From an uncultured Gemmatimonadales bacterium (lineage in GTDB: Bacteria; Gemmatimonadota; Gemmatimonadetes; Gemmatimonadales; Gemmatimonadaceae), in NCBI GenBank assembly GCA_963793305.1, contig CAWBZV010000003.1, forward strand, positions 1,344,001-1,408,000: a stretch of 64,000 bases of DNA, in the 5' to 3' direction. The translations under genes were made by a program, and so were the position numbers. Every line of letters begins with the position of its first letter. The stretch's first letter is position 1. Below the pieces are notes generated by a model. It saw nothing but the letters and a program-made list of their open reading frames with translations, made no database searches and was not told the DNA's origin. Of this stretch, positions 1,340-4,924 are shown one piece after another.

Positions 1340-2308
1340 TCAGGGAACGAGGAGAATCTTGCCGGCCGTACGACGCGACTCGAGCGCGCGTTGCGCGTCC
1401 GCGGCGTCTTTCAGCGGGTACTCGTGCGCAATCCGCACCTTGAGCTCGCCGGCTTTGATCCACGTGAACAGATCGTTCACCCGTCCCACCATCTCGTCGC
1501 GCGTCGCGGTGTAACTGCCGAGCGTCGGGCGCGTGAGATAGAGCGAGCCCTTGCGATTCAAGATCTGGGGATCGATCGGTGGAACCGCGCCGCTCGACGC
1601 GCCGAACAGCACCATGTATCCGCGCGGCCGGAGACAGTCGAGGCTCGCGTCAAACGTTGCCTTCCCGACCGAGTCATACACGACATCGACACCCTGGCCA
1701 CCGGTGTACCGCGCGACCTCGGCCACCACGTTCTGCGTCGAGTACTCGATAGTCTCGTCCGCGCCGTCGGCACGGGCGATCTCGGCCTTGGCCGCCGTGC
1801 CCACGCTCCCGATCACCCGCGCGCCCCGCCGCTTGGCGATCTGGACGAGCAATCCCCCGGTGCCGCCCGCAGCCGCGTGGATGAGACACGTCATTCCGGG
1901 CGCCAACGGATACGTCAATGTCGCGAGATAATGCGCGGTCATCCCTTGCAGCATGACCGCCGCGGCTACGTCGGTAGCGACGCCATCGGGAATCTTTACG
2001 AGCTTTGCCGCAGGGACGGCTTGCAGCTCCGCATACGCTCCAAGCGGTCCCTCGTACGCGACCCGGTCACCAACGGCCAACCCGGCCACGCCGTCGCCGA
2101 GGGCGACGATCGTTCCGGCGCCTTCCGTGCCTGGGATAAAAGGCATGGGCACTGCATACATCCCAGTCCGCCGGTATACGTCAATGAAATTGACGCCTAT
2201 GCCCGCGAGGCGAACCAGCGCTTCGCCGGGGCGAAGTTGAGGGTCGGTTACGGTTTCGTAGCGGAGGACCTCTGGTCCTCCGTTTTCGTGTACACGGATG
2301 GCCTTCAT
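1340..2308 (-). CDS. qor: NADPH:quinone oxidoreductase (zeta-crystallin/MDR family)
   Basis: MKAIRVHENGGPEVL, GVNFIDVYRRTG, HAAAGGTG, DVVYDSVG, GKILL motifs. Confidence 0.9.
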   Translation of the reverse strand: MKAIRVHENGGPEVLRYETVTDPQLRPGEALVRLAGIGVNFIDVYRRTGMYAVPMPFIPGTEGAGTIVALGDGVAGLAVGDRVAYEGPLGAYAELQAVPAAKLVKIPDGVATDVAAAVMLQGMTAHYLATLTYPLAPGMTCLIHAAAGGTGGLLVQIAKRRGARVIGSVGTAAKAEIARADGADETIEYSTQNVVAEVARYTGGQGVDVVYDSVGKATFDASLDCLRPRGYMVLFGASSGAVPPIDPQILNRKGSLYLTRPTLGSYTATRDEMVGRVNDLFTWIKAGELKVRIAHEYPLKDAADAQRALESRRTAGKILLVP

Positions 2309-2311
2309 GGG

Positions 2312-2341
2312 TTGACAAGTTATAACGTCGCCGCGTAGTCT
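2312..2341 (+). promoter_or_regulatory. sigma70-type promoter for a leaderless leader-peptide transcript
   Basis: TTGACA (2312-2317), 18 bp spacer, TAGTCT (2336-2341), then ATG 5 nt later at 2347. Confidence 0.65.
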
Positions 2342-2346
2342 CCGAC

Positions 2347-2412
2347 ATGCGTCGCGAAACCGTCACGTTCTGTTGTGCTACCGCCAATCTGCGGCCAAGG
2401 CGACATACGTGA
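2347..2412 (+). CDS. Cys-Cys leader peptide (21 aa, MRRETVTFCCATANLRPRRHT)
   Basis: Small ORF with tandem TGT TGT at 2371-2376, between the promoter and an intrinsic terminator preceding a sulfurtransferase. Confidence 0.7.
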   Translation: MRRETVTFCCATANLRPRRHT

Positions 2413-2444
2413 CGGACTGACAGCATAATTGTCGCGTTTTCCCC

Positions 2445-2477
2445 GGCCGCTCCGATTACCGAGCGGCCCTTTTTTTT
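2445..2477 (+). terminator. Intrinsic terminator (attenuator) directly upstream of the sulfurtransferase RBS
   Basis: GGCCGCTC-8 nt loop-GAGCGGCC, then C and T8. Confidence 0.8.
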
Positions 2478-2489
2478 CCCCGAGGAACT

Positions 2490-3386
2490 ATGTCGACCGC
2501 TACCACCACTGTGGATCCGGAGATCGAGAAGAAGGGGTACGCCCAGCCCGAGGTGTTGGTCAGCACGAATTGGCTGGCCGAGCATCTCCATGACCCGAAT
2601 ATCCGCATCCTGGAGAGCGATGAGGACGTCCTGCTCTACGACACCGGCCACATTCCCGGCGCGCAAAAGGTCGATTGGCACACCGACCTGAACGATCCGG
2701 TCATCCGCGACTACATCACGCCGGCCGCGTTCCAAGCGCTCCTGCGCCGCCTCGGCATCGATGAGTCGACGCCGGTCATCTACTACGGCGACAAGAACAA
2801 CTGGTGGGCGACGTATGCCTTCTGGGTGTTCAAGCTCTTTGGCTTCGAGAACGTGCGCGTTCTCGATGGCGGGCGCGCGAAGTGGGAGGCGGAGAAGCGG
2901 GAGTTCGTCACCGATCGGCCGAAGTTCGAGCCCTCGACCTACACCGCGCCGCAGCGCGACGACAAGCACATCCGGGCCTTTCTCGAGGATGTGAAGAAGC
3001 ATCTCAACGCCAAGGGCAAGCTCGTCGACGTGCGTTCGCCGCAGGAATACACCGGCGAAAAGCTCCACATGCCCGACTACCCGCAGGAGGGCGCCCTCCG
3101 CGGTGGGCACATCCCGACGGCCAGGAGCGTTCCTTGGGCTCGCGCCGCGAATCCCGACGGCACGTTCAAGTCCGCCGAGGACCTCCGCGCCATCTACGAG
3201 AAGGAGCAGGGGCTTAACAAAGGCGACGAAGTCATCGCCTACTGCCGCATCGGCGAGCGGTCGTCACACACGTGGTTTGTGCTGACGTACCTCCTCGGAT
3301 ATCCCAAAGTCCGGAATTACGACGGCAGCTGGACCGAGTGGGGGAACGCCGTGCGCGTGCCGATCGAGCAGGGGTCGGGCAAATGA
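2490..3386 (+). CDS. sseA: Thiosulfate/3-mercaptopyruvate sulfurtransferase (tandem rhodanese, SseA/CysA type)
   Basis: GHIPGA, DWHTDL, catalytic [25 protein letters not shown]. Confidence 0.92.
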
Positions 3387-3460
3387 TACTCTTATGTATC
3401 GTGTGATCCATTAACGCCTCAGGGAGTATTGGCGGGGATCATGTTACTTTGCCCCCGCCA

Positions 3461-4924
3461 ATGCTTCTTAAGTTCGTCGTTGCGCTGAGTATCGCGGTAC
3501 GTATCGGCGCGCAACAACCGGCGCCGCCGAGTCGGGCGCTCTCGCTGTCCGACGCCGTCGGTACCGCGCTCGGCCAGAGCGAGACGATGACGATCGCTCG
3601 CGCAGGTCTGACGCGCGCCCGCGGGCAGGTCCTGCAGGCGCGCGCGCCGTTCCTGCCGCAGCTCTTCGGCACGTTGAGCTATACCCGCACGATCAAGTCG
3701 CAGTACGCCGCTCTGACGTCCATCCCCAAGAACCAATTCGAGCTCTGTACGATCCAGCTCGACTCCACCGCGACCGGGGCGCAGCGGCAAGCCGCGCTGG
3801 CGGCAGCCCAAAGCTGCCCGTCCCAGTTCTCCGGCAACATCTTCTCGAGCGTCGGCATTGGCGCGCTGAACGCCTACAACCTCGGCCTCTCGTTCTCGCA
3901 GACCCTGTTCGATGGCCAATTCCTCGCGGCGCACGCCGCCACGGCTCCGCGCGAGGCTGCGGAGATCGAGCTCGGCGCCCAGCGCGCGCAGGTCATGTTC
4001 GACGTCGCGCAGGCGTACTATGATGCCGCACTCGCCGACGAGCTGGTGACGATCGCGGATTCGACCCTGGCGATGGACGAGCGCACACTGGCCCAGGCGC
4101 AGTTGGCCCGGCGAGTGGGCAACCAGTCGGAGTTCGACCTCCTCGAGACGCAGGTGACGCGCGACAATCAGATCCCGGTGCTGGTTCAGGTGAAGGCCGA
4201 GCGCGATCAGCGATACTTGCGGCTCAAGCAGTTGATCGGGCTGCCGCTCGACGCGCCGCTGGCCCTGACGACCGGGGTCGAGGACGGGACCGATCTGCCG
4301 GGGGGTATGCGACTCGCCTCGCTCAACGACAGCATGCCCGGCGTAGTCGGCGATACCACGGTCGACCACCGTTCGAGTGTGCGCGAGCAGCACGAGGCGG
4401 TCGTCGAGACAGAGGCGCTCGTGTCATCGAGTCGCGGCGAGTACCTGCCGTCGCTCTCCTTGACCTCGAGCTACCAGCGGGTCGCCTTTCCCACGGGCGG
4501 GCTTCCCGCCTGGAATAGCTTCTTGAACAATTGGACTATCGGCGTGACGGCGTCCGTGCCGATCTTCAATGGATTCAAAACGCACGGGGATGTATTGATC
4601 GCCGAGGCCAACCTCGAGACCGAGAAGGCGCGGTACAACCAAGCGCGCGACGCGGCGGCGCTCGACGCGCGGAGCACGATAGCGGAGCTTCGCGCGGCCG
4701 AGGCCAGCTGGCGCGCGGTGTCGACGTCGTGGCTGCAGGCGGTGCACGCGTACGAGATCGCGGAGCTCCGCTATCGCGAAGGACTCTCGTCGCTGGTCGA
4801 GTTGAACGGGGCTCGGATCGCGCGTCAGCAGTCGTTCTCGAATCGCGCCCAAGCGGCCCGCAACGTCCAGGTCGCCCGCATGCGCGCCGCCCTGATCCGC
4901 GACCTCCCACTGGCGACGCGATGA
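3461..4924 (+). CDS. TolC-family outer membrane efflux protein
   Basis: Signal peptide, LSLSDAV, YLPSLSL, PIFNG, YREGLSSLVEL; first gene of a TolC-MFP-RND operon; start uncertain (3449/3461). Confidence 0.85.
   Translation: MLLKFVVALSIAVRIGAQQPAPPSRALSLSDAVGTALGQSETMTIARAGLTRARGQVLQARAPFLPQLFGTLSYTRTIKSQYAALTSIPKNQFELCTIQLDSTATGAQRQAALAAAQSCPSQFSGNIFSSVGIGALNAYNLGLSFSQTLFDGQFLAAHAATAPREAAEIELGAQRAQVMFDVAQAYYDAALADELVTIADSTLAMDERTLAQAQLARRVGNQSEFDLLETQVTRDNQIPVLVQVKAERDQRYLRLKQLIGLPLDAPLALTTGVEDGTDLPGGMRLASLNDSMPGVVGDTTVDHRSSVREQHEAVVETEALVSSSRGEYLPSLSLTSSYQRVAFPTGGLPAWNSFLNNWTIGVTASVPIFNGFKTHGDVLIAEANLETEKARYNQARDAAALDARSTIAELRAAEASWRAVSTSWLQAVHAYEIAELRYREGLSSLVELNGARIARQQSFSNRAQAARNVQVARMRAALIRDLPLATR

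Follow-up and report, generated by a model that had tools for sequence, protein, structure and literature searches.

In Rhodobacterales, cysS is preceded by the uORFC-8-2 motif, which comprises an upstream ORF with two tandem Cys codons and an intrinsic terminator with a U-run; in the sections of the paper considered here, an attenuation mechanism with read-through upon stalling is offered as a presumption, and its tables might hold further Cys uORFs (Brewer et al., 2021, PMC8632094). In mycobacteria, the polycysteine leaderless sORFs Ms5788A/Rv0815A form a Cys 'ribulon', and the parts of the preprint used here describe this attenuation as translational, termination having been ruled out (Canestrari et al., bioRxiv 10.1101/834739). 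The consulted passages of a 2026 paper likewise cite Cys attenuation solely as translational (PMC13236596). The trp attenuators of Corynebacterium and Streptomyces carry a conserved complementary triple gGCC-rGCy-GGCC, and the actinobacterial Cys leaders in the portion of the same source used here are without terminators (Seliverstov et al., 2005, PMC1262725). None of the cases from our literature searches in which terminator-type attenuation had been tested involves cysteine; for this amino acid, attenuation is proven at the level of translation, and its terminator version exists as a prediction only. Searches of the literature accessible without subscription gave no match for cysteine attenuators or for classical attenuation with a Cys leader peptide and cysK, and none for attenuators, leader peptides or leaderless transcription starts in Gemmatimonadota.

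Here, we analyze a leader of 130 nt upstream of the sulfurtransferase gene sseA in a stretch of 64,000 nt from an uncultured Gemmatimonadales bacterium (the window). Probably, judging from its sequence and that of its relatives, this leader is a classical ribosome-stalling transcription attenuator that senses Cys-tRNA and controls sseA. The principle of such a switch is textbook and not new. A sequence-only reading of the locus had implied that an intrinsic-terminator version with only two Cys codons would be new in this lineage. This was overstated, since PMC8632094, in its accessible sections, already predicts a uORF before Rhodobacterales cysS that has two Cys codons and an intrinsic terminator.

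The likeness to uORFC-8-2 is one of description and extends to the tandem Cys codons, the terminator with its U-run and the proposed stall read-through. As far as the description in PMC8632094 goes, however, uORFC-8-2 precedes cysS in Rhodobacterales, is dominated by UGC, has its Cys at codons 14-15 and is given no leaderless start, whereas the leaders described here belong to another phylum, precede sulfurtransferase, sulfite reductase-like, cysK, cysC and tauE genes, are dominated by UGU, place Cys at codons 9-10 in the sseA leader, and probably start leaderless. With the mycobacterial sORFs, as presented in the parts of the preprint used, the sseA leader shares a probably leaderless sORF with a Cys run, the occurrence at several loci per genome and a thiosulfate sulfurtransferase target (there cysA2); in contrast to these translational attenuators, it combines a terminator and an antiterminator with a free SD and two Cys. 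With its SD beyond the stem and a T8 terminator, it falls outside the mycobacterial polyCys LL-sORF class. Judging from the consulted portion of PMC1262725, the actinobacterial trp attenuators share two to three sensing codons and a GC-rich terminator with poly-U, and their triple gGCC-rGCy-GGCC resembles the GCGGCC/GGCCGC/GCGGCC core found here, but they sense Trp instead of Cys. The compact leader can be tested in a laboratory strain, and sensing may require no more than two UGU codons, on an mRNA that is probably leaderless. For a phylum that is abundant in soil and has few cultured members, the leader would also be a first entry point to the regulation of sulfur metabolism.

Architecture of the sseA leader

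The locus comprises the following features (positions in the window):

1340..2308, minus strand: NADPH:quinone reductase-like gene (qor), divergent neighbour of the leader, given as context
2312..2317, plus strand: -35-like hexamer TTGACA, read from the sequence
2336..2341, plus strand: -10-like TAGTCT (TAnnnT), 18-nt spacer from TTGACA, 5 nt to the leader ATG
2347..2412, plus strand: leader ORF MRRETVTFCCATANLRPRRHT, 21 codons, ATG 2347, TGA 2410-2412, with homologous Cys leaders in relatives
2360..2368, plus strand: segment 1, anti-antiterminator, partner of 2407-2415 in ribosome-free RNA
2371..2376, plus strand: Cys-Cys codons TGT TGT (codons 9-10), 14 nt upstream of the antiterminator core
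2381..2384, plus strand: CCGC, sequestering the antiterminator GCGG by computed pairing
2391..2396, plus strand: antiterminator core GCGGCC, pairing with 2445-2450 (GGCCGC, terminator 5' arm)
2407..2437, plus strand: switch helix 2407-2415:2429-2437 within the antiterminator fold, from folding
2445..2477, plus strand: intrinsic-terminator-like hairpin, 8 bp, -15.9 kcal/mol, arms GGCCGCTC (2445-2452) and GAGCGGCC (2461-2468), with T8 at 2470-2477
2482..2486, plus strand: GAGGA, sseA ribosome-binding site beyond the terminator stem
2490..3386, plus strand: sseA, tandem-rhodanese sulfurtransferase of the SseA/CysA2 type, ATG 2490, CRIGER motif

Re-reading the sequence reproduced all coordinates that the sequence-only reading had given for the promoter hexamers, the ORF, TGT-TGT, the stem, T8 and the ribosome-binding site. 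The terminator is listed by a consensus scan, although the scan's two terminators against 1.3 ± 1.1 in shuffles are not striking on their own. The TTGACA/TAGTCT promoter is absent from the scan list because TAGTCT matches three of six consensus bases. Rfam searches for a T-box or riboswitch at positions 1500-4000 of the window returned five weak matches, all far below the gathering score, and Rfam models had no match in 17 leader loci.

The promoter spacer contains a palindrome, GTTATAAC, at 2319-2326, which is kept in four of six same-genus genomes and carries one change in G003, where another gene takes the place of the divergent qor. On the minus strand, the palindrome reads TATAAC and lies 10 nt upstream of the qor ATG; the leader and qor promoters may thus overlap, or the palindrome may be an operator.

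Of the 25 family leaders, 16 have a TTGAC-type hexamer 35-38 nt upstream of the start chosen for them. In this genome, an ATG follows TTGACN..TAnnnT at offsets of 4-9 in 43 of 144 sites, compared with 0-3 at each offset elsewhere. The spacing from TTGAC[AT] to ATG in this genome shows no peak when the TAnnnT box is left out and peaks only with it. Leaderless starts are therefore plausible in this genome, and for the sseA leader we infer such a start near 2347.

Small shares of sequence words from the locus occur in six soil metatranscriptomes, four of which were available as assembled contigs. RNA contigs covering 2365-2688 and 2362-2589 span the terminator and none covers 2252-2327; we do not use them as evidence because ends, strand and level are unreadable, DNA carry-over is possible and a silent control is lacking.

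Conservation upstream of sseA orthologs

The DNA upstream of sseA orthologs was scored in 106 regions of the window's family, anchored on the protein and without an RNA pattern; L259, L337 and L338 (less than 300 nt upstream), L015, G163 and G243 were left out. A terminator-like hairpin is found in 28 regions and absent in 78, counts in which the apparently real hairpins of L281 and L027 are missed and the likely false ones of L009, L284 and L333 are kept. A mini-ORF with CC or CxC occurs in 20 of the 28 hairpin-bearing regions but in only 5 of the 78 hairpin-less ones, for which the control window was more generous, in agreement with the conserved Cys sORF that the sequence-only reading had expected in relatives. 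Similarly, ORFs with at least three Cys are present in 18/28 regions with the hairpin and 4/78 without. The Fisher values overstate these contrasts because the genomes are related and kin are not independent. In a second family (f2), CC/CxC ORFs show the same tendency (5/6 vs. 4/21), but for ORFs with at least three Cys the contrast is weak (2/6 vs. 7/21). Overall, a Cys leader with a hairpin precedes sseA in about two dozen related genomes. Most sseA orthologs are without the leader, and several of those inspected lie closely behind another gene.

Twenty-five family leaders were defined by hairpins with a GGCCGC-type core, allowing a gap of 5-22 nt between the last Cys codon and the antiterminator. 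The gap measures 11 nt in six leaders, 14 nt in eleven, and 17 and 20 nt in one each, so that all 19 lie in one frame though leader lengths vary; in the other 6 of the 25, the expected position is without a canonical antiterminator core. The Cys codons of the leaders are 66 TGT to 44 TGC, compared with 744 to 2625 in the long ORFs of this genome.

In an alignment of seven sequences, the terminator stem is paired in 100% of cells and CCGC:GCGG in 96%. The helix 2360-2368:2407-2415 contains two pairs with double-sided change, a value reached by 50 of 500 shuffles. The antiterminator core is nearly invariant, without double-sided change, and its value is reached by all 500 shuffles; with so little variation in the core, covariation is weak. 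Cross-pairing of the helix extensions yields p 0.02, or 0.06 after kin are collapsed, and the cognate extension outscores a same-locus decoy in 18 of 19 cases.

A loose pattern (TTGAC..RTG..TGYTGY) was uninformative, its matches in 401 genomes being at the level of the control. Outside the window's family, Cys-rich leaders and U-tailed hairpins stand before sseA orthologs in L044, L049 and L059 (Chloroflexota), L087 (Cellvibrionaceae) and L052 (Longimicrobium).

Folding of the nascent leader RNA

Folding of the leader RNA reaches z = -3.75, a stability that none of 200 shuffles attains. Three mutually exclusive folds were computed. Nascent RNA ending where the terminator 3' arm begins was folded and swept with ribosome masks of 10, 13 and 16 nt. 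Without a ribosome, 2360-2368:2407-2415 (P 0.995) and CCGC:GCGG (P 0.98) form and the antiterminator does not (P 0.0003). With the ribosomal A site at codons 4-10, the antiterminator reaches P ~1.0 for all three footprints; it is blocked from codon 12-14 on, with P 0 from codon 14. The Cys codons thus lie near the end of the permissive window, and the antiterminator closes two to four codons further on. The pairings that the sequence-only reading had proposed (2360-2368:2407-2415, CCGC:GCGG and GCGGCC:GGCCGC) all form in the computed nascent folds, the first two without a ribosome and the third with one at codons 4-10, and its expectation that a ribosome at the Cys codons frees the antiterminator holds in the masked folding of nascent RNA. 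An addition to that scheme is that, in the antiterminated fold, 2407-2415 switches partner to 2429-2437. The same mask-sweep pattern is observed in L002, L003, L005, L006 and L011.

At full-length equilibrium, the terminator of this allele dominates even with a stalled ribosome (P 0.99), and the attenuation model therefore needs kinetic trapping. In L004, L006 and L011, certain stalls move the equilibrium to the antiterminator (0.58-0.94). Within the genus, this allele has the weakest antiterminator (-16.0, compared with -19.7 to -27.3 in the others; shuffle p 0.125).

Proposed mechanism and alternatives

Transcription would start at or near 2347 and the mRNA would be translated leaderless. 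When Cys is plentiful, the ribosome would pass codon 13 and cover 2391-2396, or leave and allow the 2360:2415 hairpin to form; in either case 2445-2468 could fold and RNA polymerase would stop at the U-tract. When charged tRNA-Cys is scarce, the ribosome would stall at codon 9 or 10 and cover segment 1 and CCGC, such that GCGGCC could capture the 5' arm of the terminator ahead of synthesis of the 3' arm, resulting in read-through into sseA. Cysteine synthesis might then receive reduced sulfur, perhaps derived from thiosulfate, through SseA and a similarly led sulfite/nitrite reductase; this is the weakest step of the scheme. The sequence-only reading, which had put forward Cys-codon-dependent transcription attenuation, is supported: the conservation, the spacing, the specificity for the amino acid and the ribosome-masked folds are all in line with it. 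As far as sequence analysis can address them, the locus appears to have all features of a classical leader-peptide attenuator apart from covariation, which is weak.

The same RNA switch might instead be operated by a TnaC-type arrest, in which the nascent Cys peptide reacts to a ligand such as a persulfide, an oxidant or a metal. The targets are sulfur and redox genes, and an Arg-Pro-like pair recurs about five codons past the Cys run; the pair is, however, imposed by the GCGGCC core that encodes it. The leader peptides have nothing in common in sequence except Cys, the number (1-7) and spacing of which vary, and Trp and Phe/Tyr leaders use the same core, so we regard peptide arrest as unlikely. 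A related idea is that the leader senses sulfur amino acids or translation speed in general and that any early stall, caused by Met or Cys shortage or by antibiotics, opens the switch. Indeed, the antiterminator becomes free with a mask on any codon from 3 to 11, related leaders mix Met and Cys, and some stand behind SAM-II riboswitches. The sseA leader, however, has no Met codon beyond its start, and Cys is the only family-wide residue and occupies the last permissive positions, which makes a general sensor improbable.

Regulation in the mycobacterial manner, with the sseA ribosome-binding site hidden by pairing and without termination, has a proven precedent that is leaderless, Cys-rich and located before an operon with cysA2. 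Here, GAGGA (2482-2486) lies 13 nt past the stem and stays single-stranded in the centroid fold, the hairpin carries a T8 tail, and in relatives (L006, L011) the hairpin is 50-120 nt from the start codon; translational attenuation is thus highly improbable at this locus. Finally, the hairpin could be the constitutive terminator of a small RNA or a small Cys-peptide gene, with sseA transcribed from an inner promoter. The consensus scan does list such a promoter-like site, GCGACA-18-CATAAT at 2400-2429, with 9 of 12 matches where 0.3 sites are expected. Transcripts from this site would, however, still begin ahead of the terminator, CATAAT is lost in L004, L005, L006 and L011, and the pairing of Cys with sulfur genes and of Trp with trpS would be left unexplained, so that this arrangement has very little to recommend it. 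Attenuation by a ribosome stalled at Cys codons accordingly remains our preferred reading.

Amino-acid specificity of a shared scaffold

A Cys-free pattern, consisting of the antiterminator and terminator cores only, was run on 401 family genomes and 104 distinct matches were inspected; the raw match count is meaningless because a reversed control pattern matches about as often. A U-tract is present in 38 of the 104. With the reading frame taken from the sseA set, at least two Cys occur in the fixed frame in 18 of 23 U-tract matches before genes that we classed as sulfur-related (sseA, NIR_SIR reductase, osmC-like, cysC, tauE, ThiF-rhodanese), or in 14 of 19 after removal of the four loci used in pattern design, with a few more overlapping the sseA set. 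The corresponding count is 0/6 before trpS-like genes, where five of the six have at least two Trp in some frame, and 4/66 among matches without a U-tract. Five of the nine other U-tract matches have at least two Cys, including those before a cysteine synthase A gene (cysK) and a hemD-like gene. Cys leaders on the shared core thus stand before sseA, sulfite reductase-like (NIR_SIR), cysK, cysC and tauE genes. The sensing codons match the target gene, and one scaffold therefore serves several attenuators; exceptions to the match include panB, which follows a Met-rich leader, and a hemD-like gene, which follows a Cys leader.

On the GCGGCC/GGCCGC scaffold, Trp leaders precede trpS-like genes in L136, L137, L157, L166, L168 and L176, and a Phe/Tyr-rich leader precedes prephenate dehydratase in L145. 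In several loci, a SAM-II riboswitch (RF00521) is located upstream of a Cys/Met leader attenuator (L158:1232-1303, L164:2350-2424, L165:2346-2417, L133, L141, L170); SAM-II was matched in 7 of 15 hand-picked loci, and three of the tandems precede sseA. The Met-rich leader before panB stands behind such a riboswitch (L170), while L142 carries the riboswitch alone with the same antiterminator core. The poly-Cys leader before the hemD-like gene (L174) might serve siroheme supply. A conserved leaderless ORF that starts with MPTR and contains Leu/Val codons (G310:C6:65521, G493:C60:1052, G281:C53:25599) is possibly a branched-chain amino-acid leader.

Sulfur genes and further leaders of this genome

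By its two rhodanese domains (Pfam Rhodanese) and its CRIGER motif, which the consulted part of PMC6856128 assigns to thiosulfate sulfurtransferases, the SseA protein is predicted to be a thiosulfate sulfurtransferase of the SseA/CysA2 type. It matches known tandem rhodaneses over the full length (1uar, E 1e-124; Mycobacterium tuberculosis SseA, 3hzu, 3e-112; CysA2, 3hwi, 2e-90) and shares CRIGER with them; the comparison is one of sequence and draws on parts of PMC6856128 and PMC12375888. Its best named relatives are from Gemmatimonadota.

Three of the 122 terminator-like hairpins in this genome combine a leaderless-type short ORF with a downstream gene, and two of these three loci are Cys-run leaders before sulfur-type genes, namely sseA and a nitrite/sulfite reductase gene. 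The second leader, MTLRCCCLAPRIPETQA, contains Cys-Cys-Cys and a terminator before the NIR_SIR reductase (G000:C2:572452-572560; L125:1953-2062) and follows the same stall logic in ribosome-mask folding; its U-tract adjoins the reductase ATG, with no obvious SD. A search of this genome with covariance model R1 gave no second strong copy of the sseA leader, and the reductase leader is therefore analogous but not alignable. The reductase ortholog in G127 also has a poly-Cys leader and terminator, and that in G034 lies within an operon headed by a poly-Cys leader, with cysteine synthase A next. From this context, we infer that the reductase acts on sulfite. The co-regulation hints at an in vivo role of SseA-type rhodaneses.

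On a thiosulfate route, a rhodanese would release sulfite and sulfane sulfur, a reductase would make sulfide and cysteine synthase would fix the sulfide. Such a thiosulfate-to-cysteine route would fit the gene set of this genome, which is 92% complete. A cysteine synthase gene is present, with no Cys-run ORF within 450 nt upstream; profiles PF01507 and PF01747 have no match in the assembly at this completeness, and APS kinase has a marginal match only. Four CC/CxC ORFs were noted near PALP genes, and the two inspected are apparent chance ORFs without a promoter-terminator layout. A search of the literature accessible without subscription found nothing on thiosulfate assimilation via rhodanese and sulfite reductase. 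Tentatively, and with considerable doubt, Gemmatimonadota may possess a termination-based cysteine 'ribulon' built on a portable GCGGCC/GGCCGC cassette, which would be redirected to another amino acid by exchange of its sensing codons (Cys, Met/Cys, Trp, Phe/Tyr), could be stacked behind SAM-II and would here co-induce rhodanese and sulfite reductase as a thiosulfate-to-cysteine route without sulfate activation. If true, the SseA family would gain a physiological job.

The third of the loci with a leaderless-type ORF (G000:C6:29093, plus strand) carries an Asp-rich ORF, MVTSRDDSRATDCWGH, and a terminator before a 410-aa protein, which looks like a probable Asp/Asn-tRNA synthetase; MVTSRDDSRATDCWGH is thus a candidate Asp attenuator.
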